This document shows, one piece after another, positions 21,143 through 62,657 of a stretch of 64,000 bases of DNA. The notes beneath the pieces are model-generated. The model searched no databases and had not been told where the DNA came from. It saw only the letters and a program-made list of their open reading frames with translations. Source of the DNA: an uncultured Acidobacteriota bacterium (GTDB taxonomy: Bacteria; Acidobacteriota; UBA6911); the NCBI GenBank assembly GCA_963827655.1, contig CAWHCF010000004.1, positions 96,001 through 160,000 of the forward strand. The letters run 5' to 3'. Within the stretch, counting starts at the first letter, position 1; the number at the start of each line of letters is the position of its first letter. A program made the position numbers and the translations under genes.

Positions 21143-21180
21143 TAAGCCCCAAAAAAATCGCCCCGCCCCGCGGGGCCCAG

Positions 21181-21201: not shown

Positions 21202-21300
21202 GGGGTGTCAACCCCTAACATCATGTGCAGCCTGGTGCAGTCCGGAGCGGGCTTGGATGTCTGCAGGTTCTCAGCGCGCTGGGATCGAGTGCCTGTCAGG

Positions 21301-42839: not shown

Positions 42840-44112
42840 TTAAGCTTCAGCCGGCAACGGCGCGCGCCTTCTCATCGGTTCCCATTTCCAGTAGGTCAGC
42901 GAGCGCCAGACCCACTCGAACGGCCCATAATGAAAGCGCCGCAGCCACAGCGTGGAAAAGATCAGCAGAAAGCTATAGACCGCGAATGTGATCAGGATCT
43001 GTCCAAGGCGATCCACCGACCCGAAAAGACCGAGTCCGTGGCCGTAGAAAATCGTCGTACAGATCAGGCTCTCGCCGAGATAGTAACACGGTCCGTGGAA
43101 AGGCCATCCGGCCTCGGCGCTGCGGCAAGATGGGTCTACGCAGGCGCTCGCGAGAGCGAAGGGGACTATGCAGGCCAGCATCACGAGACCTACGTAGGCG
43201 AGGCTCACCAGCAGGCTGCCCCAGTAATTGTACTGCCCGCCGAAGAAGAACGAATACCGCACGTCCCAGTTCGAGGCCTGGTTGCGATGAATCCCATGAA
43301 GAATCGCCGGGATTCCCGTTCCCAGCCCCAGGATTGCGAGCTTCCGTAGAAGGCCGACGAGCGCCTTGCATCGAACACTCCCCATTTGTATAGCGCCATT
43401 CCGACCAGCATCAGTCCGCCTGCGCGCCAGATGCCCCAGATCCACATGACGAAGACGTGGAACTCGAGCGCCACCTTGACCCGTTTAGGCATCTGGTCAA
43501 GCCAACCGCCCCGATAAGCTGCGACTTCCGCGGCTAGCTCTTCCTGCGGCGGGAGCCACAAATCGTCGGTAAACTTCTCAATCTCCTCGGGCGGCCAAAA
43601 CCGCACGGACCAGCCGAAGAGCAGTGAGATCCCGGATCCGATCGCGATCATCAGGATTCCAATCATCAGCAGACGCGCGCTGGCGGCTGCCGGCGCATCA
43701 AATAACACTACGAAACCGCAAACCGCATAGAGCACCAGGATGTCGCCGTACCAGATCAGGTAGGCGTGCAGCAGTCCGAACACCAGCAACCAGAATGTCC
43801 GCCGGTAGTAGATCGGACCGGGCCGGTGCGCCCTGGGCCTCGATGCGACTGCGTCATCAGCACGACGCCCGCTCCGAAGAGCAACGAGAAGAGGGTCATG
43901 AACTTCTGGTCGGCCAGCAGGTGACTGAAGAACCAGACCCAATAGTTCGCGCCCGACAGGTCTCCGTAAGCGGTCGGGTTGAAGTAGGCCGAGAACGGCA
44001 TGGCAAACGATTGAATGTTCATCACCAGAATGCCGAGCACGGCGAAACCGCGCAGCACGTCGATAGAGCCGATGCGTTCGGATTCGGTGACCGGCGCGGC
44101 TGATGGCGGCAT
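42840..44112 (-). CDS. DUF418 (YeiB-like) membrane protein, several frameshifts
   Basis: [51 protein letters not shown] across three frames. Confidence 0.83.
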
Positions 44113-45511: not shown

Positions 45512-46646
45512 ATGAACCTGGAACTGAGCGAGGAACAGAAGATTCTTGGTGAGAGTGTCGCCCGATTCTGTAAGGCCGAGATTTCCATGGAAACGGTTCG
45601 CCGGCTGGCTGATCATCCCAAGGGGATGCCGGACGAGCTCTGGCAAAAGATCGCCGAGCAAGCCTGGCTGGGCGTGATGATTCCCGAGCCGTACGGCGGT
45701 TTGGGTCTCGGAGTCACCGAGCTTGGGATCATTCTGGAAGAAATGGGGCGGGCTCTCGTTCCGGGACCCTATTTCGCCACGGCGGCACTCGGAGCGCCCG
45801 CGATCGTCTTGGGAGGAAATGAAGCGCTGAAGAGTCCGCTGGCTGGAAAGAATCGCCGGAGGCGAAACGAAGGCGACCGTCGGGATTCTCGAAGAAGACG
45901 GCCAGCTTGGCCCGGAGCACGTCAAGGCCACTGCGGTAAAGAGCAGCGAGGGGTACGTTCTCAACGGGAAGAAGTTCTTTGTCCCTGACCTGGCCGCGGC
46001 CGATATTGCTGTCATCGCCGCCCGTACGGGCGAAGGTGAAGACTGCGTTACCCTTTTCCTGGTAGAAACCGGAGCTTCTGGTGTCTCAATCGAGGAGAAC
46101 AGACTCACCGATTCGACCAGCCGTTCCGGTCAGCTCGTCTTGAAAGATGTTCAGGTAGGTCACGATTCCGTTCTGGGGACCCCGGATCAAGGATGGGAAG
46201 TCGTGGATCGGGTTCTTCTAGTCGCCAATGTGGGGATTGCGGCCGGTTCGGTAGCGGCGGCAGAGCGGGTCCTCAGGCAGGCTGTGGCCTACGCGCGAGA
46301 ACGGAAGCAATTTGGCGTGCCGATCGGATCGTTCCAGGCTGTCAAGCATCCGCTCGCCAACTTGTTCGCCGAAATCGAAAGCGCCCGGTCGGCTTACCAC
46401 TATGCTGCCTGGGCGGTGGATGCGCGGAGTAGTCAAGCGCGCAGCGCAGTGGCTGTGGCCAGGCTTACCGGCACCGATGCTTATCGGAAGGCGGCGCTGA
46501 TAAGCCTTCAGACTCACGGCGGAATCGGCTTCACCTGGGAGTACGACCTTCACTTTCATCTCAAGCGGGCCATGCACAATCAATGCTTCCTCGGAGTCCC
46601 GGCCGACTACGAACAGGCCGTCGCGCGCGAGGCGCTGGGCGTCTGA
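45512..46646 (+). CDS. acyl-CoA dehydrogenase partner subunit (frameshift near 45840)
   Basis: PEPYGGLG, LNGKKFFVPD, RKQFGVPIGSFQAVKH, QTHGGIGFTWEYDLH. Confidence 0.85.
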
Positions 46647-46663: not shown

Positions 46664-46702
46664 CCACCACAAAGACACGAAGACACAAAGAAACTCTAAG
46701 AA
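46664..46702. repeat. dispersed 9-nt-period repeat
   Basis: ccaccacaaagacacgaagacacaaagaaactctaaga between convergent genes. Confidence 0.65.
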
Positions 46703-47793
46703 AGCGCGCGCTCGTAGCAACGCATCGTCGCGCGGGCCGCAGCTTCCCAGGTATACTGCCGGGCTCGTTCCCGACCTCTTGCCGCCAGGACCAAGCGCTT
46801 TTCCTCATCCCGGGCCGCTTCTTCGAGCGCGATCCGCCATTGGTCCACGTCATCAACATCGGCGATCCAACCGGCGTCTCCTACCAGCGATGTCAGCGGC
46901 TCAATCCGTGCGACCACCACGGCGGTGCCGGAGGTCATGGCCTCCAGCACCGGCAATCCGAATCCTTCCATTCGAGAGGGATAGACGAAAGCCAGCGCGG
47001 CTTGCATCAGAGCAGGCAGGTCGTCTTCCACGACGTAGTCCAGTAACCGCACCCTCGACTGGATTCGCAATCTACCAAGACTGCGCATGACGTCTTTCCA
47101 GAGCCAGGCTCTGCTGCCGGCCAGGACCAGCTCGACTTGATTCAGGTTCGACTGTCCAAAGGCCTCCAGGAGCAGAAGAAGGTTTTTTCGAGGTTCGATG
47201 TTGCCGAGATAAAAGAAGAAGGGCCTTGCGAGGCGATACTTCTGCAATACCGCCTCTTTTTGCTCCGCACTGCAGACTTTGGTGAAGATCTTTCGGGCGC
47301 CGAGGGGGACTACGCAGAGCCTGGAGGGTGGGACCGGCAGCCAGGCGCTCAAGTCGGCGCGGGTTGCTTCGGAGTCGCAGAGGACGACGCGCGCGCCGAG
47401 GATTGCGGGGCGAATCAGCCTGCGCATCCAGATTCTGCGGGTCCAGGGATGCCACTCGGGGTGTCGAATGAGGCTCAGGTCGTGAACCGTGACTACGTAG
47501 GGGACGCGTACACGCAGAGGCGCGACGCTGTTGGTAAAGTGACACAAATCGGGATGGTATTGCGCCAGGATGCGAGGCAACCAGGCTTGCATCCAGATCT
47601 CCTTGATGGGGAAGGCAAGTTTCTGGGTGCGAATCAGATTGACTGCGCGCGGGACATAGTCCGGAAGATGGGACAGTACCAGATACTCCCGGTCGGGAAA
47701 CTCCGTCGAGAGAGCGTCGAGTAGTGAGGCGGCATAGTGGCCTACTCCAGACTGGTACTTTCGCAGGGGACTGGCGTCAAATCCGATTCTCAT
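46696..47793 (-). CDS. glycosyltransferase family 4 (mannosyltransferase-like)
   Basis: MRIGFDA, TVHDL, GNIEPRKN, YPSRMEGFGLPVLEAM. Confidence 0.9.
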   Translation of the reverse strand: MRIGFDASPLRKYQSGVGHYAASLLDALSTEFPDREYLVLSHLPDYVPRAVNLIRTQKLAFPIKEIWMQAWLPRILAQYHPDLCHFTNSVAPLRVRVPYVVTVHDLSLIRHPEWHPWTRRIWMRRLIRPAILGARVVLCDSEATRADLSAWLPVPPSRLCVVPLGARKIFTKVCSAEQKEAVLQKYRLARPFFFYLGNIEPRKNLLLLLEAFGQSNLNQVELVLAGSRAWLWKDVMRSLGRLRIQSRVRLLDYVVEDDLPALMQAALAFVYPSRMEGFGLPVLEAMTSGTAVVVARIEPLTSLVGDAGWIADVDDVDQWRIALEEAARDEEKRLVLAARGRERARQYTWEAAARATMRCYERALS

Positions 47794-49543
47794 CGGGATC
47801 ATTGCCGCTCGCACATACGACACCTAAAGAAATCCAGAAAAGCAGAAAGGTCGGAGTGAATTTCAAGAAATAATCGACCGAACCATGCAGCAAGAAAGCC
47901 AGGAAGTATGTTATTCCATAAAAAACTGTTGCACGATCGGCTGGCGACATGGCCTGGCGCAGTCTGGCCCATAAAGCCCGGCCCATCTCGAAAAGTAGCC
48001 AGAGCAGCGACAGGAAGCCGATGATCCCGCTTCCGGCGAGATACTCCAGATAGAGACTGTTGGCTAGAATGGTGTCGTCTCCCGCAGGAATATCCATGTA
48101 CTTCCACTTGAGAAGCCGGAAGCTGTCGGGACCCAAGCCGAACCAGGGTCTCTCGCGAAACATTTTGAGGGCCGCGCGCCACAGACTCCATCGGCTGGGA
48201 ACCAGATTCCGACCCTGGGTGTCTCGTTCCTGCTGCAGGAGCTTGCCATGCGCGAAGGCTTCGCCTGTCGGAAGCGGAGCAGGGCCGTTTTTCGAGTCAT
48301 GGATGATGATGATCTGAGGTGTCGAGTTGGAACGCTCAACCTCTTCGATATACGAATGGCGCTCGGGAAATGAACCACACGAGCGTGTACTCCCCTTCGC
48401 GCGAAGGTGTCTTAAGCATTACTTCCACCTTTCGTTCCTCGCCAGGGAGTACGTCTGAAGCGAAGATCGCTCCCTCCATCAACGCGCTCGGCTCCCCCGT
48501 GGCAAAACGATACCAGCGATACGCGACGCCAAATCGCTTCCCCTCCCACGCTGTCGAAGAATCGTTCCGGACAATTATGGCTTCCCGGTATTCCTGACCC
48601 GGAGATAAGTATCGGACCGGGTCTGTAACGGGAAGCGAATAGTGCGCGACGCGGCTTCCGGCAGCCGGGGCCTGGGTCTCGATGTGGGCATAGCGCAGTC
48701 TGACGGCGTTACCTATTCCGGCCAGCAGCACCACAACGGTTCCTGCGACGGCCAGTCTCCACCATTTCTTGACGAACGATTCTCGAAAGACCCACTATTG
48801 CGGTTACCAGCGCGAGGATGGCGGAGCCCAGAGCCCCGCGCGAATAGGTCAAGAAGATCGCCGGCACCTGAACGGCCGCAGCCGTGAACCAGAGTCCCGG
48901 CAAGCGCTGCGATCCAGACGCCGGTCGAACAGCCGCGAGGGCGATAGTAGCGGCGAGCGACGCCACCAGGAAATGCGCGGCCGTATTAGGGTTCTCCATT
49001 GTGGATTTGAAACGCACGCGGCCCCCCACCAAATGATCGCTCGACTGGAAAATCTGCGCGATGCTGTCGAAGAACCGGATGCCCGCATGTTCGCCCAAAC
49101 CGATGACGGCCGTACAGAATCCCGCGATCGAAAGCGCAATGAGAAGACGTACGCCCGTGTGACGCCGGACCGTTGCCCTGCGGCTCAGGTCGGCCGCCGC
49201 GATCAGCATGACTACTCCAAGGAGCGACTTCACAGAGGCTTTGGCTGCATTGAACCTGAATTCGGTCGCGAGCATTGCGGCAAGTGCTTGCGAGACGATG
49301 TATAGGAGACGAGGCTAGCAGGAGACGGGGTGGCAGGGAAGGACTGAGCTTGCGCAGGATGGAGCCCGAAGACGTGGCCGCCTCGACCATCTTCATCACG
49401 ATCCAGCATCCCAGGAAAAGAATGAGCTGGAGCTTCAGGCTGGTATACAGGGACTCGGTCGTCGTGTAGAAGTAATACTCGAAAGGAAGCCCCAGGATCA
49501 GAGCATACAGAAGAATCTCACAAGCTTGTCGGAGCACCTGCAC
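47777..49543 (-). CDS. O-antigen ligase/Wzy-like membrane protein with Ig-like insert, several frameshifts
   Basis: STMENPN, LTYSRGA, R..LW.AA..MFRERPWFGLGPDSF, ANSLYLE, HGSVDY; N.SS..W...P..G.YTL Ig-like segment. Confidence 0.72.
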
Positions 49544-49771: not shown

Positions 49772-51274
49772 ATGCCCTCGAGAAAGATAGTCTTCTTCTT
49801 CCCTGCCTTCTCCAGTCTCGAAGCAACTGCGCCGCTCGGGATTCTGGCGGTTGCTACTCCTCTGCTTCGAGCAGGCTATCAGGTCCGGATCATCGATTCG
49901 ACCATCACGCCAGGATTTCAGAAGCGCGTCCTGGAGGAGCTTCAGGATGCCCTGTGCCTCGCGGTTTCGCTGGTGACTGGACCCATGATCCGCGAAACAG
50001 TTGCGATTGCGCGGGAAACCAAGAAGCTCTATCCCAAGCTGCCGGTGATCCTCGGTGGATGGCATCCCTCGCTGCTGCCGGACCAGACTCTCGCGGCGGA
50101 CTATGTTGACATTGTCGTGAGAGGTCAGGGAGAAGACGCACTCCTCGAGATCGTCGAGCGTCTGGAAGCGGGGGCCTCGCTCGAGGGAATTGATGGCGTG
50201 GGTTACAAGGAAGACGGAAGACTGGTTTTTAATCGGCCGCGTCCCCTGACCCCGATCCGAGATCTTCCTCCCAAAGCCTATCATCTGGCTGATTTCGACG
50301 CGTATGAACGGGTGTGCGGCCGCCGCTGGGCCATGTACATTTCCAGCCTTGCCTGTCCCTATAGCTGCGCCTACTGCACCAATGAAGGAGTATACGGCCG
50401 GCAGTGGAACGCGCTGGAACCGGAGCAGGTGGTCGAGGAGACCACCGATCTGGTTACGCGCTATGGGCTGCAGCTGCTGTGGGTCGTGGATGACAACTTT
50501 CTGGTTGACCGCGAGCGCGCGGTGAAGATCGCAGAAGGGCTCGTGCGCCGCGGAGTCTCATTCGACTGGAGCATCCAGGCCTCGACCAACCTTGTGACAC
50601 GCCTGTCGGTCGAAGAGCTGAAGCTTCTTCGTCGCGCGGGCCTGTCGCAAATCTGCCACGGCGCAGAATCGGCATCCCCGAAGGTGTTGAAGCTGATGAA
50701 CAAGGACTTTCAAAAAATCGACACCATTTACGGGGCGGCGGAGAAGTGCGTACAGGCGGGAATTCGGCCATCGTTCAACGTCATCTTCGGCTTTCCCGGC
50801 GAAGGTGAGCCGGAAAGGCAGGAGACGATTCGCTTCATCATGGACGTCTGCCGCCGCTATCCGGGAGCCGAATTCTGGACCAATATTTTCACGCCTTATC
50901 CGGGCGCCCCGATCATGCAGCGCGCGGCGGAATTAGGCATCGAGACCCCGGATTCATTCGAGGGATGGGCCGATTTTTTCCCTCGCTATACCATTCTCCC
51001 GTGGCTGAAAGGACGCAGCCATCAAAGGGTCCAGGCCATGCGCGACTACCTTCGAGTTGCGTTTGATCGAGTCCCGATTGCAAGCGATCGACGGCACAGG
51101 GTCACTCGCCTGGTTCACCAGGCGATAAGCCTTCCGGCTCGCTGGCGCCTGGATCACAACGTCTATGGCCTTCCCCTCGAAATCTGGGCCAAGAACGCGG
51201 TGAATCGAGTGTTTGAATCACCCAAACCGATAGTGGACGCCCAGCAGTTGTCCTCGGAACCTGTCACATGTTAG
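49772..51274 (+). CDS. B12-binding radical SAM protein 1
   Basis: PLGIL, GGWHPSLLP, VVRGQGE, CPYSCAYC, VDDNF, GAES, GFPGE, TPYPG. Confidence 0.9.
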   Translation: MPSRKIVFFFPAFSSLEATAPLGILAVATPLLRAGYQVRIIDSTITPGFQKRVLEELQDALCLAVSLVTGPMIRETVAIARETKKLYPKLPVILGGWHPSLLPDQTLAADYVDIVVRGQGEDALLEIVERLEAGASLEGIDGVGYKEDGRLVFNRPRPLTPIRDLPPKAYHLADFDAYERVCGRRWAMYISSLACPYSCAYCTNEGVYGRQWNALEPEQVVEETTDLVTRYGLQLLWVVDDNFLVDRERAVKIAEGLVRRGVSFDWSIQASTNLVTRLSVEELKLLRRAGLSQICHGAESASPKVLKLMNKDFQKIDTIYGAAEKCVQAGIRPSFNVIFGFPGEGEPERQETIRFIMDVCRRYPGAEFWTNIFTPYPGAPIMQRAAELGIETPDSFEGWADFFPRYTILPWLKGRSHQRVQAMRDYLRVAFDRVPIASDRRHRVTRLVHQAISLPARWRLDHNVYGLPLEIWAKNAVNRVFESPKPIVDAQQLSSEPVTC

Positions 51275-51402
51275 GCGGACGGGCTATCGGGCTTCCGCCG
51301 TGGAACGAATTGAAGGCTTTTCAAATACCGGGTTGGAACTGAGTAGGAAAATATCTTAACCCAACCCTGGCCTCCCTGGCACCAGCTTCCTACTCCAATT
51401 CA

Positions 51403-52903
51403 ATGAATAATAAAGTTGTGTTGTTCCTTCCGCCTTATACTGGTGCCCCGCTGGGCCCGCCCCTGGGACTTCTCTGCCTGGCGTCTCCTCTTCGTGAAAC
51501 AGGGTATGAGGTTAAGATCATCGATGCGTCTATAACTCCGAACTATCTTGAACTCGTCCGAAGAGAAATTCAGGACGCGCTCTGTTTCGGCGTCTCTTTG
51601 CTCACAGGACCCATGATCCGAGGCGCGATCGCAGCCAGTTCCCTGGTCAAGAGTCTGCGGCCCGACCTCCCCGTAGTGTTCGGCGGATGGCACCCCAGCC
51701 TCTTGCCCGCGCAAACCCTGCGCGAAAGCTTTGTCGACATCGTGGTCCGCAATCAGGGGGAGATCACGTTCCTGGAGGTGGTGGAGCGGATTCGATCGAA
51801 TCAAAGTCTCACAGGTGTTCAGGGTTGTTCGTTCAAGTCAACCGGCCAGATTCATCACAATCCCGATCGTCCGGTCGCGCGGATCGAGACGCTGCCTGCG
51901 CCGGCATACGAGCTGGCGGATTTCGATGCTTACGAAGCAGGTGAGCGGTGAGCGAAAGCTCCCCTATGCCAGCAGTGTCGGCTGCCCTTATGCTTGCAAC
52001 TACTGCACCGATACGGTGTTCTACAAGCGGCGCTTCAATGCCTATAGCGCCGCAGAGGGTGGTGCGAGAAGTAACGGCGCTGGTCGCCCGCCATCGGTTG
52101 AGTGAAGTGGCGATGCTGGATTCCAACTTTCTGGTCGACACGCGCCGGGCGGTAGAGATCGCTCGAGGATTTCTGGCATCCGGCTTGCGCTTCCGGTGGA
52201 CCTTCCAGGCTTCGACCGATCTCCTGTGCCGGATGAGCGACGAGGAGGTGCGACTCCTCGGTGACAGCGGCGTCAGCCACATTGGATTCGGGACCGAATC
52301 GGCATCAGCCGAGGTCCTGGAGAAGATGGACAAGCATCATCAGCCAGATCCCGGACATGTTCGAGACCGGGCGTAAATGCCGGCAGGCCGGAATCCGGGC
52401 CACGTTCAATTTGATTCTGGGCTACCCCGGTGAAACGGAGCGGGATCGCTGCGAAACGTTGCGTGTCATGAGCGAGATCGGTCAGCGTTTCGACAATGTG
52501 ACTTTTTCTCCCAATATTTTCACCCCTTACCCCGGAATTCCAATCTGGCCTGAACTCCGAAACCTCGGGGTGAAGGAGCCGGAAACGCTCGAAGCCTGGA
52601 GCACGATCGCTCTGGGAACCAACATGCTGCCATGGCTGCGGGGCGAACCTTATCGCAACGTGAAGCGCAGCATGTCGTTTTTCATGTTGAACAACGAAAT
52701 CACAAAGCTGATCCGCAGAGGTTCGCTCGTCACGTCTGCACCGCTTCCTGCTGCGCGCGTTACAACGACCCTTGCACTGGCGCATGAAGCATTACTGCTT
52801 TCGATGCCCGCTCGAGCTCTGGGTCGTGAGAAACCGGCTGGTGATGCGCCGTTCACTCCTCACCGGTCAAAGCTTGGGAGAGAGCCTTTCGGAGACCTGT
52901 TGA
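51403..52903 (+). CDS. B12-binding radical SAM protein 2 (several frameshifts)
   Basis: PLGLL, GGWHPSLLP, NQGE, CPYACNYC, LDSNF, GTES, GYPGE, TPYPG; reconstructed end ...SLSETC*. Confidence 0.83.
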
Positions 52904-52966
52904 CAAGAGCAGTAGGCAGTAGGCAGCGGGCTGGCGCGTCCGCCACAGAGAAGCGGAGCGGGTATA

Positions 52967-54409
52967 ATGGCTGATATTCTCCTGACTCATTGCAACCACC
53001 TGTACTTCGATCGCAAGCAGGTGCGCAAAATGCAGCCCTACCCTCCGTTGCAGACCCTGATCGCGGCGGCCCTGCTGCGCAGGGAAGGGTTCGATGTGGC
53101 GCTGTTTGACTCCACGCTGGAGCCGCCGGAAGAGGGCTTCCGGGCCGCGCTGGCACGACACCGGCCGCGTCTCGTCGCTCTGTGCGAAGACAACTTTAAC
53201 TTTCTGACCAAGATGTGCCTTACCCGGAACCGGGAGCTTGCGTTCTCGATGTGCCGGACGGCCAAAGAAACTGCGATTCCGGTCCTGGTGAACAGCTCGG
53301 ACGCGACGGATCACGCCGGGGAATACCTGTCAAACGGCGTCGACTATGTCATGGTGGGCGAGCTAGAGCATACCCTGCTGGAAACGGCGCGATGCCTTCT
53401 CGAGGGCCACACCGATCGGATCGAAAACATCGATGGCCTCGTGTACCTCGACTCGCGCACGGGCGCGGCGCGCTACAACCGGCCGCGGGGGGTCATGGCG
53501 AACCTCGATCTCTTGCCCCTCGCCGCCTGGGACCTGATCGACGTGGCGCCCTACCGCCAGGCCTGGATGCAGGCCCACGGCTATTTTTCGCTGAACATGG
53601 TTTCCAGCCGCGGTTGTCCATATCATTGCAACTGGTGTGCGAAACCGATCTACGGCCAGAGTTACCATTATTGCTCGCCCGATCGGATCGCCCGCGAGAT
53701 GCAGCATCTAAAGACCCACCTGCGGCCCGACCATATCTGGTTCGCGGACGACATTTTTGCGCTTTCGGCGCAGTGGACTGCGCAGTTCGCAGACGCGGTC
53801 GAGAATCTTCGGGCGCAGATACCCTTCAAGATGCAATCTCGCTGCGACCTGATGACCCGGCCTACCGTTGCGGCGCTCAGGCGCGCCGGCTGCTCCGAGG
53901 TTTGGATGGGGGCCGAGTCCGGATCTCAGAGAATCCTGGATGCAATGGACAAAGGAATTTGCCTCGAGCAGATTCACCAGGCCCGCGAGAATCTGCGCCG
54001 GCACGAGATTCGCGCTTGTTTCTTCCTGCAGTTCGGTTATCCGGGGGAGGATTGGGACGATATCCAGAGCACGATCCGGCTGGTTCGGGAGACAGAGCCC
54101 GACGACATAGGAGTCTCGGTTGCCTATCCCCTGCCGGGCACGAAGTTCCACGAAAGAGTGGTCGCCCAGCTGGGTGAAAAGAAGAACTGGCTCGATAGCG
54201 ACGACCTGGCCATGATGTTCCGCGGCACTTATACCAACGATCTCTATCACGCCTTGCACGACGCGCTCCACCTCGAAGTGGATCTCCGGAAAAGCAAAGA
54301 CAAGGACAACGAGAGGCACAAGGCTCTGCGTGACCTCTGGGCCCGAGTGGAAGAATTACGCACTACCTGTGCCAATCCTGATCCCACGGTTCTATGGACC
54401 TCCTCCTGA
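52967..54409 (+). CDS. B12-binding radical SAM protein 3
   Basis: PYPPLQ, SRGCPYHCNWC, ADDIF, GAESGSQRILDAMDK, GYPGE, YPLPGT. Confidence 0.9.
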   Translation: MADILLTHCNHLYFDRKQVRKMQPYPPLQTLIAAALLRREGFDVALFDSTLEPPEEGFRAALARHRPRLVALCEDNFNFLTKMCLTRNRELAFSMCRTAKETAIPVLVNSSDATDHAGEYLSNGVDYVMVGELEHTLLETARCLLEGHTDRIENIDGLVYLDSRTGAARYNRPRGVMANLDLLPLAAWDLIDVAPYRQAWMQAHGYFSLNMVSSRGCPYHCNWCAKPIYGQSYHYCSPDRIAREMQHLKTHLRPDHIWFADDIFALSAQWTAQFADAVENLRAQIPFKMQSRCDLMTRPTVAALRRAGCSEVWMGAESGSQRILDAMDKGICLEQIHQARENLRRHEIRACFFLQFGYPGEDWDDIQSTIRLVRETEPDDIGVSVAYPLPGTKFHERVVAQLGEKKNWLDSDDLAMMFRGTYTNDLYHALHDALHLEVDLRKSKDKDNERHKALRDLWARVEELRTTCANPDPTVLWTSS

Positions 54410-55796
54410 CCCACGGTTATTTTCTCAGAGAAGACCCGAAAGAGCTTGCGGTCATGAAGCCCTACGCTCCGCTCGGGATTCTCTATCTGTCCTCTCATCT
54501 CAGGAAAAAAGGATTCGAGGTCGAGATCTTCGATACAACTTTCCGCGCGCGCGCAGATCTTCTCGCGATTGCTCGAGACCGGTCCTCCTTCGGTGGTGGG
54601 CATCTACGGAAATCTTATGACGCGCCGGACCGTCCTGGAGTTGACCGCATGCGCGCGGGACGCCGGGTGGACCGTCATTCTGGGAGGCCCGGAACCCTCC
54701 ACCTATGCCCGGGAATATCTGGAGGCCGGCGCTCATGTCATCGTGCAGGGCGAGGGCGAGATAACCATGGAGGAACTGCTCCCTGCATTGCGAGCCGGTC
54801 GCGACGCGCGCGCTCGAGCGCGTCAACGGCATCATCTTCCGGCGCGCGGATGGTTCGGTTGCACACACTCCGCCGCGTACTTTAATCGCCGATCTTGACT
54901 CGCTGTCCTGGCCCGACCGGGAACGCGTGGACATCGAAGACTATATCAAGGTCTGGAAAGACCATCACGGCATGGGCTCGGTCTCGGTCATAACCGCCCG
55001 CGGGTGCCCTTATCATTGTCGCTGGTGCAGTCACTCCACTTATGGCAAGACCCACCGAAGGCGATCGGCCGGATGTGTGGTGGACGAGGTCGAGTGGATC
55101 GTTCAACGCTACCAGCCGGACATGCTCTGGATCGCCGACGACGTATTCACTATCCATCACGGGTGGATTTACCGGTACGCGGAGGAAATGAAGCGGCGCA
55201 ATCTTCGGATCGCGTTCGAGTGCATCACGAGAGCCGATCGCCTGAATCCCAGAATCGCCGACACATTGGCCGAGCTGGGTTGCTTTCGCGTCTGGGTAGG
55301 GTCCGAGAGCGGATCCCAGCGAATACTGGATGCCATGGAACGAGGAGTTACGGTGGAGCAGGTCCGGCAGTCCATTCATCTTTTGCGCGCCCGGGGCATT
55401 CAAACCGGAATGTTCCTCATGTGGGGTTATGAAGGGGAAGACATATCGGATATCGAAGCCACCGTGACTCACGTCAAGTCTTCCATGCCCGACGTCTTTC
55501 TCACGACGGTTTCTTATCCGATCCGGGGAACGCCCTATTACGAAGAAGTCGAGTCGCGGCTGGTCAACCTGGCCGAGTGGAGCCGAACCACAGACCGGGA
55601 CTTCAAGCTTCGCGGACGTCACTCGAGGAGGTTCTTCGGGTTTGCCGATCAGCTGCTGAAGAATGAAGTCGGGCTCCACAAGTTGATGATTTCGCCGGAA
55701 GCGTCTCCCGACGCCGCCACGGTGGCATACTTTCGGAGACAGATTGACGAAGCCCGGCAGGGGCTTCAGCAATCGTACGAAGAGGTCGAAGCGTGA
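54394..55796 (+). CDS. B12-binding radical SAM protein 4 (frameshifts near 54560 and 54810)
   Basis: PYAPLGILYL, LGGPEP, VQGEGE, ARGCPYHCRWC, ADDVF, GSESGSQRILDAM, YPIRGT. Confidence 0.87.
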
Positions 55797-56697
55797 CCGA
55801 CTGCGGATCGCGAAGAGTTCGGATGCCAGGATTGAACCATCAGGCTGCTTGCCAGTCAGCAATCCAAGGTCGCGGCGGCATTCGATGCGCTGGCTGCGCG
55901 CTATGACGACACGTGGACCGACTCGGTTATCGGGCGCCTCCAGCGTGAGTCCATCTGGCGGGCCATCGACGGTATTTTCACTCCCGGCGGGCATATTCTG
56001 GATCTTGGTTGTGGAACCGGAGTCGATGCGGCGCTATCTGGCCCGTGCCGGACTCCGAGTTCACGCGACCGACATCTCAGGCGGCGATGCTGCAGGCCAC
56101 GCGGAAGCGGTTGGAGCGAGAAAGAATCACGGACCGAGTGACCTTCGAGCTGAGGGCGCTGGAGGATCTCGCGCTTCTGAAAGAACGCGGCCCATTCGAC
56201 GGAGCCATTTCAAATTTCGGTGCGATCAATTGCGTGCGAGGATTTACCGGGCGTCGCTTCAAGCCTGGCAGAATTGATTCGTCCCGGCGGCAGGCTGGTC
56301 ATTTGCTCGATGGGCCGATTCTGCCTTTGGGAGTCGCTCTGGTACCTCATGCACGCGACGCGCCGGGAAAGCTGTTCGACGGTGGAGTGGCGCCGCACCG
56401 GCGGGACATGTCCGGAAGACCGAAATGACGCGCAGGCCTCCTTTGGTACGCGGCCGCCGCTTTGAGGTTTTTTATCCCACGGTCGCTGAGATTGCATCAG
56501 CATTTAGACGAACACTTCCGGCTGATTCAATTTCGCAGCATCGGAGTATTCGTGCCTCCTTCCTACATGGAGAGTTGGGCCGCGAGCGGCGCCGGCCTTT
56601 ATGCGCCGGCTGGGGCGCCTCGATTTCCATGGTTGGCGCATGGCCCGGTCTGCGAGCTATCGGAGACCATCGCTTGCTGATTCTCGAGCGATCCTGA
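55793..56697 (+). CDS. class I SAM-dependent methyltransferase 1 (frameshifted)
   Basis: AFDALAARYD, ILDLGCGTGVDA, FDGAISNFGAINC, IRPGGRL across frames; start approximate. Confidence 0.78.
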
Positions 56698-56745
56698 CTA
56701 TGGCTTCCTATGCGGCACCCTGCGGATCAAACCAGAGTCCCTGAA

Positions 56746-57696
56746 ATGGAGCAGCGTTCGTTGAAGCTGCGCTGTCCGTCGTGCTTCGCCCCTGCCGGCG
56801 AGCTGAAAGGCGCCGCGAAGAGGGGAGAACCTGCCTTTCCTGCGGCTATCGCATGGAATGGGTCGAAGGCATTCTGCGCGCCGTGATCCCGGAGCGCCGG
56901 AAATTCTATGATCGCTTTCTGACGGAATACTCGACCATTCGAAAGGCTGAGGGGCGCGGCTCCGATGATCCCGCGTACTATTTGGCGCTGCCGTACAGGG
57001 ACTTGACCGGAAGGCATGCCGAACAGTGGGCCATCCGGGGTAAGACCTATCGCTATTTCGAGGAACGCGTGCTGCCTGCAGCTCGAAACCGGCCGGCCTC
57101 TCGACATTCTGGATCTGGGAGCCGGAAACGGCTGGATGTCTTACCGCCTGGCTCAGAGAAAACATCATCCTGTGGCGGTCGACATCCTCACCGATCCGTT
57201 GGATGGGCTGGGCGCCGCCCGGCATTTCCACGCCGCGCTCGACGAGAAGTTCCCGCTGGTTGAGGCGGAATTCGATCGTCTTCCGTTTCGCCGACGCTCA
57301 GTTTGATCTTGCGATCTTCAACTCTTCGATTCACTACTCGTCGCATTATCATCACACTCTGAACGAGGCGAGACGCTGCTTGCGTCCTTCAGGGCGTGTG
57401 GTGATCCTTGACTCCCCGATCTACAGGAAATACTCCCATGGCGACCTGATGCGATCCGAACGCCATCGAGAGTTTGAAGCGCGCTATGGCACTCGTTCAG
57501 ACTCAATCCCGAGCGTTGAATTCCTGCACCAGGCGGTTCTGGAAGAATTGGCGGATTCACTTGCATCTCAGTTGGGAAATCTACAAGCCCTGGTACGGTT
57601 GGAAGTGGGCGCTCCGTCCCTGGAAGGCTCGCCTGAAGCAGGCAGAGGCCTCCGTCTCGCTTCTGGATTCTCGTCGCCACCTGGGCTCGGTCATGA
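56746..57696 (+). CDS. class I SAM-dependent methyltransferase 2 with N-terminal Zn-ribbon (frameshifted)
   Basis: CPSC...CLSC, ILDLGAGNGW, FDRLPF, FDLAIFNSSIHYS, LRPSG. Confidence 0.78.
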
Positions 57697-59158
57697 TCAT
57701 CTTCCTTCACCCGCGCGCAACCAGCCCGCGAAGCCGGCGATTTCCGCTCTCGATCCTCGCGCTTGCGGCTGTCGTGGAAGGGAGAGAGGAATACGAAATC
57801 GTAGACGGCAACATCGACCCCGATCCCTGGGAATCCTTGCGGCGGCTGATGCGGCATAAGACTGCAGAATTGCTGGCGGTCTCGGTTATGCCGGGTCCTC
57901 AAATGAAGGCCGCCATTCCCCTGTGCCGGGCTTTTCGTGAAGAGTACCCGTCGGTCCCGATCGTGTGGGGCGGCTACTTCCCCTCTCTCTATCCTGATGC
58001 GGCCCTGAACTCGAACTACGTCGACTTCGCCGTTCGCGCTCAGGGCGAGGATACTTTCCTCGAGCTGATCGCGGCCCTTCGTGGCGAGCGCGATTTTTCC
58101 AGGATTCTCGGTCTTTCTTTCAAAGACCACTCGGGCCGGCGTGTTCACAATCCTGAGCGTCCGATGCGCTCGCCCGAGGAGTATCCCTGGCCCCCATATC
58201 ACCGGCTGGAGGTTTCGAAGTACATCCTTCCCACGTTCCTGGGCTCGCGCACCGCCGTGCACCAGGCCAGCATTGGCTGTCCCTTCCGGTGTAATTTTTG
58301 CGGGGTGATTTCGGTGTACGGGAGCCGCGAGAAAATGGAGTCGCCTCGGCGCACGGCGGCAATCTTAGGGCACCTTAAGCAGCGCTTTGGCGTCAATGCC
58401 ATCCAGTTTTACGACAATAATTTCTTCCTGCGCGACGACCATGCCCGCGAACTGGCGGAGCGGCTGACGCCGCTCGAATTGCGCTGGTGGTGCGAAGGTC
58501 GCGTCGACACGGTTCTCGGCTACTCTGATCAGACCCTTCGCGCTTTGAAGAGAGGCCGGATCCACGATGATCTTCTTCGGCGCGGAATCGGGTTCGGACT
58601 GGGTGCTCGAGCAGATGAACAAGCAACTCAAGGCGGAGCAGACGCTCGCTCTGGCCGGAAGAATCCGGCAGTTCGGCATTGTGCCCGAGTTTTCTTTCAT
58701 ACTGGGGAATCCGCACGACCCGGAACGCGATACGCGCGAGTGCATCGCGTTTGTTCGAAAGATCAAGCGGATTAACCCCCAGGCCGAGATCATCATTCAG
58801 CACTACATTCCTGTGCCTCAGCGCGACGGGATGTACGGTCAGGTCGAGGGTAAAATCGAGTTTCCCACGACGCCTGAGGAGTGGGCGACAGACCGGTGGT
58901 ACAACTTCACCGTCAGGACCGACCCGAAGCTGCCGTGGCTGCCGGATCAAATCCGGCGCCGGATCGACGACTTCGAGCTCGTGATAAATTCGCGCTGGCC
59001 CACGGTGCAAGACATCCGGCTGCCCGCGTTGGGGACGCGCGGCACTGAAGTCGCTCAGCAGCTGGCGCTACCGCCTGGGAATCTACCGATTCCCTCTGGA
59101 GCTTGCCTGGGCGCAGAAAGTGATCGATTTACGAAAACCCAAGGTCGAGAGTATTTGA
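57693..59158 (+). CDS. B12-binding radical SAM protein 5 (frameshifts near 58555 and 59030)
   Basis: FPLSILALA, VWGGYFPS, RAQGE, GCPFRCNFC, YDNNFF, FGAESGS; reconstructed end ...RKPKVESI*. Confidence 0.86.
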
Positions 59159-59868
59159 ACCATTCCCTATTACAACTGGAAAACCGGTCAACCCGCATAG
59201 TGTCGCCTGCGGAAGGGCACCGGATCTGGTCTGAGAGCTATGATAGCCAGCCCAACCCTCTGCTTGCCCTCGAGTTTCGCTATCTTTCCCGCATGATGCC
59301 GGAGATCGAAGGACGGCTGGCGCTGGACGTGGCTTGCGGGACCGGTCGATGGCTGGGTTACCTGGTTACACACGGGGCGCGAGCCTTTGGAGTCGACACC
59401 TCGCGTGAGATGCTGCTCCATGCGTCGAAAAAGCCGGGACTTCGAGAACGTCTGATGCGCGGCGACCTGTGCCATCTTCCATTCCAGAACGGGTGTGCGG
59501 ATCTGGTGATCTGCGCCTTTTCTCTCGGGTACATAAGAACGCTCGAGCAGGGTCTAGCCGAACTGGCGCGGCTGGTGAAGTCGGGCGGATCTGTGATCGT
59601 CAGCGATTTTCATCCTGAAGGACACGCTCGAGGCTGGAAGCGCGCCTTCCGGAGCGGCTCGCACAGCTACGAGATCGAACATTATCCATACACGATTGAA
59701 AGGTTGCTGGAAGCTGCTCGAAATGCGCGTCTGGATCTGGAAGAGCTTCAAGAGCCAGGTCTCGACGAACCGGAGCGGCGCATTTTTCAGGAGGCCGGCA
59801 AGGAGACCCTGTTTGAGGAAGCGCGCGGCGTGCCGGCGGTGCTTATTGCTCGCTGGAGACGGCGGTAA
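59155..59868 (+). CDS. class I SAM-dependent methyltransferase 3 (BioC-like)
   Basis: WSESYD.QPNPL, LDVACGTGR, GVDTSREML, LPF, SDFHP; TTGA overlap with rSAM 5. Confidence 0.83.
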   Translation: MNHSLLQLENRSTRIVSPAEGHRIWSESYDSQPNPLLALEFRYLSRMMPEIEGRLALDVACGTGRWLGYLVTHGARAFGVDTSREMLLHASKKPGLRERLMRGDLCHLPFQNGCADLVICAFSLGYIRTLEQGLAELARLVKSGGSVIVSDFHPEGHARGWKRAFRSGSHSYEIEHYPYTIERLLEAARNARLDLEELQEPGLDEPERRIFQEAGKETLFEEARGVPAVLIARWRRR

Positions 59869-59876
59869 ATAGACCT

Positions 59877-59951
59877 TGGCGTTTCTTCGTGTCTTTGCGT
59901 CTTAGCGGTGTCAGAAGCCAACCACGAAGACTCAAAGACACGAAGAAACAG
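59877..59951. repeat. dispersed 9-nt-period repeat, inverted pair
   Basis: gtttcttcgtgtctttgcgtcttagcggt ... aaccacgaagactcaaagacacgaagaaac. Confidence 0.72.
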
Positions 59952-59954
59952 GCG

Positions 59955-60183
59955 TGACTACAAGATAAGTCGGCATTCCACTTCTCGCCGGTACGAAAGG
60001 GTCTCGCTTTCTCTCAAGATACTTCCGGCAAGGCTCTTGGAATCTCGAGAGGGCTTTGTGTAAGCCACGACTCGGACCATCGGGCGACCACGTTTTGTTA
60101 TTACTACGGGATCTCTGGTTTCTGCTACCGTCGATAATTCTCAGACACTGGTCCTTGAACTTGGCTGCAGTGATGGTTTTCAT
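59955..60183 (-). pseudogene. Phd/YefM antitoxin (frameshifted) with stub of the toxin start
   Basis: MKTITAAKFKDQCLRIID, then VVITKRGRP..R and TGEKWNAD in shifted frames; overlapping ATG at 59976 (MPTYL...) runs into the repeat. Confidence 0.7.
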
Positions 60184-60190
60184 ATTTTGC

Positions 60191-60220
60191 AATATGGCCA
60201 TGACCATATAGCCATGTCAA
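60191..60220 (-). promoter_or_regulatory. sigma-70 promoter with palindromic operator for the Phd-like gene
   Basis: TTGACA (60220-60215), 18-bp spacer, CATATT; overlapping ATATGG-N6-CCATAT palindrome (60192-60209). Confidence 0.62.
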
Positions 60221-60395
60221 CCATCGATCTCTCGCTTCCCAGGCCGTCGCTTGGGAAGTATTTAATAGCCCTGAGGACTTGCGCCTTCGGGCCGGCTCTT
60301 GTCACTTTGGGAGGAATCGGTTCGCGGCCAAGGTCACGGTTTTTTCGTTCGGGAGCTGGAGTCCAAGGATTTATGATGAGGAACGGTGGCGCGGC

Positions 60396-61674
60396 ATGGC
60401 ACAAGAACGGTCGTGGATTCTGCGGGGAGCGCGAATAGCGCGAGGAGCCGAAGAGACAGAGGCAAGCGATATCGAGATTCGTGCCGGGAAAATCGTCGCC
60501 CTTGAATCGTCGTCGCCCATCCCGGGCACGCGCGCTCGAGCTCGATCTGCGCGGTTGTCTGGTATTGCCCGGCTTGATCAATGCCCACGACCACCTCGAG
60601 TTCAGTCTTTTTCCCCGTCTGGGACGCGGACCCTATCCCAACGCCGGCGCCTGGGCGCGCGACATCTACCAGCCGCATCGTTCGCCGATAAAGGAACATT
60701 TGCGCGTTCCCCTGCCGGTTCGGCTTCGCTGGGGCGGAATCAAGAACTTGCTGAGCGGCGTGACGACGATCTGCCATCACAATCCTTACAACGCTCGAGT
60801 CTTCGAGCATAACTTTCCCGCGCGTGTGCAGAAGAGATTCGGCTGGGCGCACTCCCTGGAGTTTGCTCCCGATCTGGAGTTGCGTTTCCGCGAGACTTCG
60901 CCGGAGTGGCCCTTTATCGTTCACCTCGGCGAGGCGAGGGATCGCACCGGGAAACTCGAGATTTTTCGACTCAACCAGCTTGGCGCCCTGGATGAGCGCA
61001 CTGTCCTGGTTCACGGAGTCGCTTTGGGAAGGCAGGGACTGCGGCTGTCGAAGGAAAAAGGAGCGGCGCTGGTTTGGTGCCCAAGCTCAAATCTGTTTAT
61101 CCTGGGGCGCACCCTGAGCCAGGCGGCGCTCAATAACGGCGTTCCCCTGGCTCTCGGCACCGACTCCGCGCTGAGCGGAAAGGGAGACCTGCTTGATGAG
61201 TTCCGCCTGGCGCAGCGAGTCTCCGGTCTTTCATCAAGCCGTCTCTATCGGATGGTTACCGAGGATGCGGCCCGAATCCTGCGGCTGGAAAACGGCGAAG
61301 GGACAGTAACGGAAGGTGGCGTGGCTGATCTCCTGGTCGTGAGAGACAATGGAAGAAGCCCGGCCGAGACGCTCACGAGACTTCGAACCGGCGCCATGGA
61401 AATGGTGATCCTGGGAGGGAGGATCAAGCAAGTTTCACCGCGCCTGGCGCCTCGGCTCCCGGCTACCGTCCGGAAGCGACTCCGTTCCCTCACTGTAGAA
61501 GAGAAACGAAGGGTCTTTCTTGATGCGGATCTTCCCGGGATCTACGCACGGACGTCGCGTGTGCTCGGTCCCGAGATCCGACTCGCCGGGAAAAAGATCC
61601 GCATCGACATAAGCGGGGCGAAACAAATACCGCCAGGACGCAAGGACACGAAGAAACAGCAAGCAAGCGCATGA
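60396..61674 (+). CDS. metal-dependent amidohydrolase/deaminase (frameshift near 60525)
   Basis: PGLINAHDH, SGVTT, VHLGE, VHG, CPSSN, LGTDS, ADL. Confidence 0.86.
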
Positions 61675-62657
61675 TTCCTGACATTATCGAGAAGCTCCCG
61701 ATTCTGATTCTTTATCCCCACAGTCGATGCAACTGCCGCTGCGTGATGTGTGATATCTGGAAGATCGACACGGTGCGTGAGATCAGCATCTCTGACCTGG
61801 ACCGTCACGCCGGCGATATCCAGTCCCTCGGGGTCCGGTGGGTGGTCTTCTCGGGCGGAGAGCCTCTGATGCACTCCGATCTCTTTCGACTGAGTGACCG
61901 GCTGCGCGAAGCGGGCATCCGGACCACGATACTGACCACGGGCCTTCTGCTGGCGAAATACTCGAGCTCAATCGTCAGCCGGCTCGACGACGTGATCGTC
62001 TCCCTGGATGGACCTCGCGAGGTTCACGATCGAATCAGGCGGATCCCGCGCGCGTTCGATCTGCTGGCGGGCGGAGTGAACGCCATTCACGCGCGCAAGC
62101 CCGAATTCCCGGTTGCGGCGCGCTGTACGGTCCAGCATGAGAATTTCTTGAGCCTGCGCGAAACTGTGCGAACGGCTAAAACAATGGGTCTCCAGTCCAT
62201 TTCATTTCTGGCTGCGGACCTGACCTCCGAGGCGTTTAACCGGCCGCAAGGTTGGTCGGGGGAGCGCCAGGCCAGCGTGGCGCTGAACGGTGAAGAAGTG
62301 AATCTGCTGGAGAACGAGATCGAGACAATGATTCGCGAATCAGCGGAAGATCCGGCCTACGTGCTCGAGACTCCGGAGAAGCTGCGACGCATTGTTTATC
62401 ATTTCCGCGCGCATCTGGGTATGGTCGAGGCGGTATCGCCGCGCTGCAATGCCCCGTGGGTGTCGGCCGTGGTCGAGTCGGACGGCACAGTTCGTCCCTG
62501 CTTCTTCCATAAACCCATTGGCAACATCGGCCGCGATACGCTTCGCGCGGTATTGAACGGACCGGAGGCAATGGAATTTCGCAGGACCCTCGACATTTCC
62601 CGGAATCCGATCTGCCGGCGCTGTGTTTGCTCGCTTCACCTTTCGCCTGTGCCGTGA
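61671..62657 (+). CDS. radical SAM protein with SPASM/twitch domain
   Basis: CNCRCVMC, SGGEPL, VSLDG, C.APW....ESDG.VRPC, CRRCVC. Confidence 0.9.
   Translation: MIPDIIEKLPILILYPHSRCNCRCVMCDIWKIDTVREISISDLDRHAGDIQSLGVRWVVFSGGEPLMHSDLFRLSDRLREAGIRTTILTTGLLLAKYSSSIVSRLDDVIVSLDGPREVHDRIRRIPRAFDLLAGGVNAIHARKPEFPVAARCTVQHENFLSLRETVRTAKTMGLQSISFLAADLTSEAFNRPQGWSGERQASVALNGEEVNLLENEIETMIRESAEDPAYVLETPEKLRRIVYHFRAHLGMVEAVSPRCNAPWVSAVVESDGTVRPCFFHKPIGNIGRDTLRAVLNGPEAMEFRRTLDISRNPICRRCVCSLHLSPVP

Follow-up and report, generated by a model that had tools for sequence, protein, structure and literature searches.

A conserved ten-gene operon rich in radical SAM enzymes in uncultured Acidobacteriota and its possible role in tailoring a cell-surface glycoconjugate

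A 64,000-nucleotide stretch of an uncultured Acidobacteriota genome (contig CAWHCF010000004.1, positions 96,001 to 160,000, forward strand; hereafter the window) carries, at 49772–62657, ten genes: five (A, B, C, D and G) for radical S-adenosylmethionine (SAM) enzymes with a B12-binding domain, three (E, F and H) for class I methyltransferases, one (I) for an amidohydrolase and one (J) for a radical SAM enzyme with a SPASM domain (Table 1). This block is a genuine conserved operon of Acidobacteriota (class Terriglobia and relatives), and the ten-gene combination has no characterised counterpart, the enzymes themselves belonging to known superfamilies. Because the operon commonly sits among genes that build surface polysaccharides, the reading we favour is that it may be a SAM-driven tailoring module for a cell-surface glycoconjugate, which we hold to be a serious possibility somewhat short of probable.

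The original prediction, made by a model from the letters of the window, had described ten co-directional genes with junctions at 54394/54409, near 55793, at 57693, near 59155 and at 61671. All ten genes lie on the plus strand at that place and the junctions are as described; the six CxxxCxxC motifs quoted with them stand in coding frames and account for 6 of the 11 such motifs in a six-frame translation of the whole window. Paralog identities, computed on intact orthologs, divide the B12-domain enzymes into one group of A, B and G (A and B 39% identical, A and G 30%) and another of C and D (34%), with 22–30% identity between groups; judged by these values, C and D are a subfamily separate from A, B and G. 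Matches to the B12-binding domain are solid for A, B and G (52–66 bits), marginal for C and fragmentary for D. Radical_SAM (PF04055) passes its cutoff in A, C and one piece of D; B and G are split by frame changes in the window, and their intact orthologs align full length. The prediction that all five enzymes depend on B12 goes further than the domain matches support, C and D, with their marginal scores, falling in the separate subfamily. We regard B12 dependence of A, B, C, D and G as putative, from the domain matches and an AlphaFold2 (AF2) model of C. AprD4, a near structural relative of C, carries a cobalamin domain yet does not use cobalamin, so B12 use is least certain for C and D.

Table 1. 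Genes of the operon and adjoining features in the window. Motifs lie in coding frames; the fifth column gives the number of the 52 related loci with full flanks (see text) in which the gene was detected.
Feature	Position (nt)	Strand	CxxxCxxC motif (nt)	Loci of 52	Description
Gene A	49772–51274	+	CPYSCAYC (50354–50377)	45	Intact B12-binding-domain radical SAM; B12-binding 63.8 bits, Radical_SAM 81.1 bits
Gene B	51403–52903	+	CPYACNYC (51983–52006)	35	B12-binding-domain radical SAM, paralog of A; B12-binding 66 bits; radical SAM part split
Gene C	52967–54409	+	CPYHCNWC (53615–53638)	52	Intact radical SAM; Radical_SAM 59.8 bits, weak B12-binding 33.1 bits (cutoff 32.1)
Gene D	54394–55796	+	CPYHCRWC (55005–55028)	52	Paralog of C; B12-binding pieces 18.9 and 32.8 bits; Radical_SAM 75.2 bits
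Gene E	~55793–56697 (bounds approximate)	+		49	Class I SAM methyltransferase; least conserved gene of the operon
Gene F	~56700–57690 (bounds approximate)	+		35	Class I SAM methyltransferase, Methyltransf_11/25; N-terminal CxxC...CxxC ribbon
Gene G	57693–59158	+	CPFRCNFC (58278–58301)	48	B12-binding-domain radical SAM, A/B subfamily; B12-binding 51.7 bits
Gene H	59155–59868	+		49	Intact class I SAM methyltransferase; Methyltransf_11 66.9 bits
Gene I	~60348–61674	+		36	Nucleobase/nucleoside-deaminase-type amidohydrolase; Amidohydro_1 65.5 bits; HxH at 60580–60600
Gene J	61671–62657	+	CNCRCVMC (61728–61751)	45	Intact radical SAM with SPASM/twitch-type C-terminal domain; SPASM (PF13186) 49.4 bits (cutoff 21.5)
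Extra stretch between H and I	59869–60347				About 480 bp, missing from orthologs, whose genes overlap there
GT4 glycosyltransferase	46696–47823	-			Glycos_transf_1 93.9 bits, Glyco_transf_4 57.4 bits; placed second in the unit that runs divergently upstream
Wzy_C (O-antigen ligase/polymerase family) membrane protein	47780–~49640 (5' end approximate)	-			Divergent from A; about three frame changes

Gene C has at least about 8,000 strong matches in a protein collection, the best of them 64–95% identical, and a second protein search likewise gave at least about 8,000. A pattern scan with one genome per species confirmed at least 590 relatives of C, of which we analysed the best 80 loci (L numbers below); 52 of these extend at least 9 kb on either side (full-flank loci). 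Genes were scored as present by tblastn at E ≤ 1e-10 with coverage of at least 40%. The order A-B-C-D-E-F-G-H-I-J dominates among the 80 loci, and in the Acidobacteriota metagenome-assembled genomes (MAGs) L001, L011, L016 and L017 the ten genes are unbroken, closely spaced and in many places overlapping, with products of 500 (A), 503 (B), 473–480 (C), 448 (D), 246 (E), about 270–310 (F), 488 (G), 224 (H), 395–420 (I) and 325 (J) amino acids. The complete set is found in 17 of the full-flank loci and at least eight genes in 45. Two variants were seen: some Bryobacterales are without B or F, and in a second variant, from loci labelled Terriglobales, Acidobacteriaceae and the like, A, G and H are on the opposite strand and I is missing. 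That the genes do co-occur in other genomes, a point which the original prediction had left to be checked, is clear from these loci, most of which are colinear.

All 80 loci come from MAGs, 79 labelled as Acidobacteriota lineages and one (L051) as Candidatus Eisenbacteria. The best named relatives of C are Bryobacterales or Bryobacteraceae, and one metagenome protein (P0001) is 95% identical. Among the best 120 matches of two protein searches, from which carrier names were taken, every named carrier is uncultured, peat lineages such as Ca. Sulfotelmatobacter included, and no cultured isolate is named. Gene A is 76% identical to its L017 ortholog over 500 amino acids. The window pieces of E have no Pfam match and its intact L017 ortholog is a Methyltransf_11 protein (58 bits); the L001 ortholog of F (Methyltransf_11, 53.1 bits) also has the CxxC...CxxC ribbon; and in J the residues C259, G272, C277, C315, C318 and C320 are invariant in all seven orthologs compared.

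Neither the window genes nor their intact orthologs reach any NCBIfam curated cutoff, and Pfam and NCBIfam give superfamily-level matches only. The best scores, with cutoffs in brackets, were 142.3 bits (481.35) for BchE (TIGR02026, gene A), 115.9 (577.6) for HpnJ (TIGR03471), which is the top sub-cutoff model for C, 95.4 (650) for HpnR (TIGR04367), 109.8 (360) for the ladderane-type lipid B12 radical SAM (TIGR04072), 100.5 (600) for PhpK (TIGR04479), 111.5 (750) for ApyD (NF050148) and 92.4 (281.85) for rSAM_ocin_1 (TIGR03975), a C-methyltransferase of RiPPs (ribosomally synthesised peptides that are modified post-translationally). Gene C scored 85.2 bits against the AprD4 diol dehydratase (NF033070, 500), and J scored 66.7 and its L017 ortholog 60 against the BlsE cytosylglucuronate decarboxylase (TIGR04466, 400). 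Gene I scored 77 bits against the TRZ/ATZ family (540) and 58 against 5'-deoxyadenosine deaminase (522; NF005557, for 5'-methylthioadenosine (MTA)/S-adenosylhomocysteine (SAH)/5'-deoxyadenosine deaminase, is an example), with a further sub-cutoff match to guanine deaminase. Literature searches found no published description of the ten-gene cluster, in line with the original prediction, which could assign it to no characterised pathway.

Structural comparisons gave a similar picture. By sequence, the nearest structures in the PDB are 9CCB and TokK for A, AprD4 for C (2.6e-19), BlsE for J (7vob, 5.9e-17, over residues 18–174 only), and, weakly, unnamed amidohydrolases and an MTA/SAH deaminase for I (4f0r at 1.6e-8); the available text of PMC12931638 describes 9CCB as a methyl-coenzyme M reductase (MCR) glutamine C-methyltransferase. 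The AF2 model of C (mean predicted local distance difference test, pLDDT, 82.7) has class B architecture, with an N-terminal alpha/beta domain followed by the radical SAM barrel, and its fold matches MgmA (9ccb) and AprD4 (6fd2) at TMq 0.66–0.67, then TsrM and OxsB, and also CysS and TokK; the likeness to AprD4, at 20–21% identity, is one of structure only. AprD4 has the highest TM-score, and the model fits all six about equally, so a methylase is not distinguished from a rearranging enzyme. HpnJ, AprD4 and BchE, which are among the nearest named models or structures of C and D, we take to be non-methylases. Searches of the ESM Atlas with J and C returned generic radical SAM clusters, mostly acidobacterial. 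PDB matches by sequence and by fold were set aside as a guide to function: they are no more than generic relatives (class B radical SAM enzymes, AprD4, BlsE and deaminases) and do not discriminate between functions.

AprD4, GenK/GenD1, BlsE and HpnJ, of aminoglycoside, nucleoside and hopanoid head-group pathways, perform radical chemistry on sugar carbons. HpnJ and AprD4 are among the top matches of C and D, BlsE is that of J, and the C model shares their architecture, with a Rossmann domain at the N-terminus and the radical SAM barrel after it. The operon differs from these systems in that its scores lie 5- to 10-fold under the family cutoffs (116 of 578, 85 of 500 and 67 of 400 bits for HpnJ, AprD4 and BlsE), none of the genes of the aminoglycoside, blasticidin or hpn pathways is near it, and five such enzymes stand together beside polysaccharide-assembly genes.

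That neighbourhood carries the argument for a surface glycan. Open reading frames (ORFs) in the flanks of the 80 loci were clustered and scanned against Pfam as 187 queries, some of them duplicates, which covered 57 of the 58 recurrent families through representatives, together with 101 of the 213 singletons and 29 hand-picked ORFs; counts of glycan genes are therefore lower bounds. At least one glycan-assembly gene was found in 41 of the 80 loci and 28 of the 52 full-flank loci: GT4 in 19 of the 80, the Bac_transf initiating sugar transferase in 15, Wzy_C in 12, GT87 in 11, Polysacc_synt_3 in 4, Wzz and Poly_export in 3 each, and MurJ-like proteins and Wzi in 2 each, with flippases in six loci in total. 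A Sulfotransferase family also recurs, in 3 loci. In 28 of the 52 full-flank loci, the gene next upstream of the operon belongs to a glycan-assembly, transporter or HprK/PF14907 family (see below). In a typical Bryobacterales layout the neighbours lie upstream of A on the strand opposite to the operon, in the outward order Bac_transf, (Wzy_C), GT4, a sigma-70-type factor, (a MurJ-like flippase), an HprK-like gene and PF14907. The median distance between Bac_transf and A is 150 bp.

The window itself has Wzy_C and GT4 divergently upstream of A, as the whole of its Wzx/Wzy-type content; single relatives such as L009 and L064 have Bac_transf, GT4 and Wzy_C, and L064 also a MurJ-like flippase. The GT4 gene gives only sub-cutoff glycosyltransferase matches in NCBIfam. 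Pfam Wzy_C matches 47780–48418 at 44.9 bits (cutoff 31.7), and the window protein matches the operon-adjacent Wzy_C proteins of L006, L012, L016, L019 and L064 (tblastn, best E 1.9e-7). An Ig-like insert in this gene (48339–48794, minus strand; N_BRCA1_IG, 29.2 bits, cutoff 28) looks unusual for an O-antigen ligase-type membrane protein.

Gene fusions add further context. In L071 (3473–5230, minus strand), P0243 and P0244 (two protein clusters, 99% and 89% identity) gene H is fused to a Wzm-like ABC-2 permease, whose relatives are named lipopolysaccharide (LPS) transport permeases, some carrying the Wzt C-terminal domain PF14524. In three other protein clusters (P0289, P0296 and P0297; 634–653 amino acids) H is fused to an amidohydrolase, which ties gene I functionally to a methyltransferase. 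The original prediction had seen neither scaffold nor exporter; this holds inside 49772–62657, whereas Wzy_C and GT4 lie directly upstream in the window and related loci further encode an initiating sugar transferase, flippases and Wzz/Wza-type proteins, along with the H–Wzm-like permease fusion. Of the alternatives it had offered, decoration of an envelope glycan is the one that the genomic context favours.

Several lines of evidence thus point to a glycan: the Wzy_C and GT4 genes divergently upstream in the window, the glycan-assembly genes in 41 of the 80 related loci, the fusion of H to a permease with LPS-transport relatives, and the sugar-acting nearest named relatives of C (HpnJ and AprD4) and J (BlsE). 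Absences agree with it, since among the 187 flank queries no radical SAM, fatty-acid or phospholipid-synthesis family was found, apart from one PEMT-like family, and no small ORF is conserved outside the core genes.

Under this reading a sugar unit would be begun by a phosphoglycosyl transferase and extended by the operon-adjacent GT4 and GT87 enzymes, and would be modified in the cytoplasm, probably while attached to a polyprenyl-phosphate carrier or in the form of a nucleotide sugar. The A/B/G subfamily may carry out radical C-methylation of unactivated carbons, and the C/D subfamily an HpnJ- or AprD4-like radical rearrangement, for example deoxygenation or ring contraction. J could catalyse one more radical reaction, for instance a decarboxylation like that of BlsE or else an epimerisation, while E, F and H would add O- or N-methyl groups. 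Gene I might deaminate an amino or nucleobase group, or might clear inhibitory SAH and 5'-deoxyadenosine, which six radical SAM enzymes and three methyltransferases would yield in quantity. The product would then be flipped or exported (by Wzx/MurJ-like or Wzm-type transporters), after which the Wzy_C protein would polymerise or ligate it; a phospho-linked group may be added, in many genomes, by the HprK-like kinase together with the PF14907 nucleotidyltransferase.

Known Wzx/Wzy- and ABC-transporter loci for O-antigen or exopolysaccharide (EPS) offer a parallel in gene content, as Wzy_C, GT4, Bac_transf, flippase, Wzz, Poly_export and Wzm-like genes flank the operon too. O-antigen chains are methyl-capped by a SAM methyltransferase (WbdD type), and the methyltransferase–permease fusion in relatives of the operon parallels this. 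The operon departs from these loci in its block of six radical SAM genes, which the literature search did not find in any of them and which to our knowledge none contains, and in partner genes that vary between lineages and that 11 of the 52 full-flank loci lack in the flanks scanned.

A number of observations weigh against a glycan substrate. The analysis establishes gene content, conservation, synteny and neighbourhood, from which the chemistry of every step and the nature of the substrate are only inferred. We know of no cobalamin radical SAM enzyme that acts on an envelope polysaccharide, and the literature search found none. The 11 full-flank loci just mentioned have neither glycan genes nor the HprK/PF14907 pair among their scanned ORFs, an upper bound given the 101 of 213 singletons covered. 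Glycan ORFs are not concentrated near the operon, making up 31 of 219 flank ORFs at 0–2 kb, 9 of 108 at 2–4 kb, 10 of 90 at 4–6 kb and 5 of 42 at 6–8 kb, or 8–14% at every distance; these counts stand without a genome-wide background rate, and glycosyltransferases are common in these genomes. Partners vary by lineage (Wzx/Wzy, ABC-2, Wza/Wzz), with no single fixed one, and the H–ABC-2 fusion is confined to three close sequences of at least 89% identity. The similarities to HpnJ, AprD4 and BlsE are far under family cutoffs. Finally, the most constant accessory pair, the HprK-like protein and the nucleotidyltransferase, is known from peptide modification (available text of PMC8498205).

This last point bears on a different proposal, in which the operon modifies a peptide or protein, either as a RiPP-like system or on a glycoprotein, with the substrate encoded elsewhere; we think this unlikely. 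It would involve poly-C-methylation in the style of proteusins or bottromycin, N- or O-methylation, cross-linking or epimerisation by J, and phospho-glycosylation by the HprK-like and PF14907 proteins. The last two are the commonest accessory genes, in 30 and 29 of the 80 loci respectively, and adjoin the operon; the pair peaks near it, making up 32 of 219 ORFs in the first 2 kb but just 1 of 42 at 6–8 kb. The HprK-related-kinase-like protein has only sub-cutoff HprK_rel_A and ScmC matches. The RiPP clusters of polytheonamide (a proteusin, with PoyB/C) and bottromycin contain, like the operon, several B12-domain radical SAM paralogs with class I methyltransferases and an amidohydrolase; sub-cutoff matches link the operon to ApyD, rSAM_ocin_1 and the ScmC/ScmE proteins of the SynChlorMet cassette; and Wzy_C proteins include O-oligosaccharyltransferases. 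The nucleotidyltransferase of lasso-peptide tailoring is presumably a PF14907 member. In that tailoring, according to the available text of PMC8498205, a kinase phosphorylates the C-terminal serine and the nucleotidyltransferase adds a hexose to the phosphate, a combination that the HprK-like/nucleotidyltransferase pair matches.

Where the peptide proposal falters is the absence of a substrate and of its usual partners. Among ORFs of 30–140 codons in the 80 loci and at the end of the window, none is conserved outside the core, although short or variable precursors could escape blastp; as precursor or RiPP recognition element (RRE) candidates we rejected every well-conserved family of this size, since each overlaps the core or larger flank genes. 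Unlike RiPP clusters, the operon has no precursor peptide, PqqD/RRE, YcaO, peptidase or lasso cyclase in its scanned flanks, and the space upstream of A is merely about 150–230 bp. A protein of 128–187 amino acids does lie between the PF14907 and HprK-like genes (L046, L050, L053, L054 and L058, at about 5.3–5.9 kb; also L049, L052 and L055), with T40, N41, W65, G94 and D102 invariant in all eight sequences; it has no Pfam or NCBIfam match and only a low-confidence AF2 model (pLDDT 64).

The operon might instead act on membrane lipids, its radical SAM enzymes methylating, cyclising or coupling the alkyl chains of iso-diabolic acid or of brGDGTs (branched glycerol dialkyl glycerol tetraethers), which we also judge to be improbable. 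Archaeal GrsA/GrsB ring synthases and the Gmm methylase, together with HpnP/HpnR, are B12-domain radical SAM enzymes that work on unactivated carbons of envelope components, much as is proposed here, and the phylum of the operon itself makes membrane-spanning lipids (available text of PMC13459092, PMC11214058 and PMC10087280); chemistry of the required kind is thus on record for archaeal lipids (PMC13459092, PMC11214058). The carriers, which as named above are uncultured and partly from peat, are Terriglobia-type Acidobacteriota, long suspected as brGDGT sources. According to the text available from PMC13159169, acidobacteria are without mss and mostly without tes, so they may use another route, and the sections available from PMC10087280 (section 4.4) and PMC13459092 name no brGDGT methylase, that for C5 included. 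The matches to the ladderane-type lipid enzyme, up to 110 bits and sub-cutoff, point the same way.

The surroundings speak against lipids. Pfam scans of the 187 flank queries turned up neither fatty-acid genes nor any of tes, mss, gms, plsA/ger and elb, nor do the scanned flanks hold hpn genes, whereas acidobacterial gms homologs are reported to cluster with tes (available text of PMC11214058); HpnR matches reach at most 95 of 650 bits. Polysaccharide-assembly genes adjoin the operon, H occurs in fusion with a Wzm-like permease, and it is not evident what three class I methyltransferases and an amidohydrolase of deaminase type would do on saturated alkyl chains. A narrower version, in which the operon would install the C5/C6 methyl branches of brGDGTs, and perhaps cyclopentane rings, in uncultured and probably oxygen-shy Terriglobia, seems to us very unlikely; in it the adjacent glycosyl-transfer and export genes would serve glycosidic head groups.

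A soluble small molecule or cofactor of nucleoside or cyclitol type, made from a primary metabolite with the glycan genes as mere neighbours, is a distinctly unlikely product in our view. It would fit the nearest solved relative of J, BlsE, which belongs to a nucleoside antibiotic pathway, the resemblance of I to nucleobase and nucleoside deaminases, the 11 full-flank loci whose scanned ORFs include no glycan or accessory neighbour, and a ten-gene core without a transferase for attachment to a carrier. Set against this, gene order and intact genes are conserved across several orders of one phylum, which is more in keeping with a component of the cell than with a secondary metabolite particular to one strain, and no dedicated exporter, regulator or resistance gene accompanies the core, glycan-type transporters aside.

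The copy of the operon in the window is itself damaged. Mapping intact orthologs onto the window by tblastn, together with a heuristic codon-usage Viterbi segmentation (a plot of GC content at third codon positions was too noisy for the purpose), located no fewer than 16 frame changes, spread over six of the ten genes: four in B (near 51940, 52052, 52333 and 52744, with ortholog pieces in frames 1, 2, 3, 1 and 2), two in D (near 54575 and 54800), at least two in E (pieces spread over three frames), five in F, two in G (near 58552 and 59015) and one in I (near 60500). A, C, H and J are unbroken. The original prediction had noted frameshifts in the cluster; they are there, and they are not confined to it, extending over 42.8–62.7 kb. 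The 7 kb upstream of the operon are likewise broken, including the unrelated YeiB-like gene (42841–44100), a second acyl-CoA dehydrogenase gene (45512–46646) and the Wzy_C gene. By codon-usage segmentation, same-strand frame switches number about 5 in 1–42.8 kb against more than 20 in 42.8–62.7 kb, roughly a tenfold higher density.

The frame changes are probably sequence errors rather than decay. Unrelated neighbours are broken too and the breaks end at about 42.8 kb, a pattern that points to locally poorer sequence; nearly all changes are +1 shifts, the aligned ortholog pieces contain no in-frame stop, and broken genes resemble their orthologs as closely as intact ones do (G pieces 76–80% identical to the L001 ortholog, intact C 69%). 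Homopolymer errors were ruled out as the cause, the sites lying outside homopolymer runs. That this genome instead holds a decaying pseudogene array without product is possible, though doubtful: the number of frame changes, their position outside homopolymers and the foreign stretch of about 480 bp that splits H from I all speak for it, against the features just listed. The insertion is a real structural difference from the orthologs. It contains a 29-nt hairpin (59881–59949) and, on the minus strand from about 60183 to 59961, a frame-broken remnant of a Phd/YefM-like antitoxin gene (PhdYeFM_antitox, 22.3 bits, under the cutoff of 29.8), with no toxin gene beside it.

Other features were noted in and around these loci. 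Three long ORFs in the window (314–546 codons), at 54882–55994 and 57318–58262 on the minus strand and at 33763–35403 on the plus strand, run antisense to called coding segments, namely D, F/G and a minus-strand coding run at 33070–35583; the last ORF, when scanned, had no family match, and all three look like the shadow ORFs typical of GC-rich DNA. In L011, a MetE-like protein with a cobalamin-independent methionine synthase domain and an MTHFR-like protein are encoded just upstream of the operon (3823–6368, plus strand); they may hint at a local methyl supply, though the arrangement is clear in this single locus alone. A member of the DinB superfamily, about 170 amino acids long, is encoded on the same strand a median of 95 bp upstream of A in L007, L011, L014, L016, L017, L051 and L061 (DinB_2, 32.3 bits, in L011). 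Elsewhere in the window, a pair of NAD biosynthesis genes, nadC-like (18998–19870) and nadA (20070–21152), stands beside an NrtR-type regulator (21301–22326), all on the minus strand (18998–22326). A riboswitch or other RNA element was considered and dropped, as the Rfam scan at gathering thresholds was empty in and beside the cluster; its sole match in the window is the Acido-Lenti-1 small RNA at 12085–12130 on the minus strand (44.4 bits, gathering threshold 37), which is consistent with an acidobacterial origin. No tRNA genes came up in a tRNA scan.

Acidobacteriota are among the most abundant bacteria of soil and peat, and their envelope chemistry is little known; the operon places six radical SAM enzymes and three methyltransferases within 13 kb and is widespread in uncultured soil and peat members of the phylum. 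Were it to bear on membrane-spanning lipids, it would touch the long-standing question of which organisms make and methylate brGDGTs, and could give the brGDGT palaeothermometer a testable genetic basis. Returning to the glycoconjugate reading that we favour, we suggest, with more reserve than for the reading as a whole, that radical SAM enzymes may edit a surface polysaccharide of a dominant soil phylum by several C-methyl or carbocyclic modifications. Such editing would be glycan chemistry of a kind not yet described, would take cobalamin radical SAM chemistry beyond antibiotics and lipids into envelope polysaccharides, and could explain properties of acidobacterial EPS and LPS.

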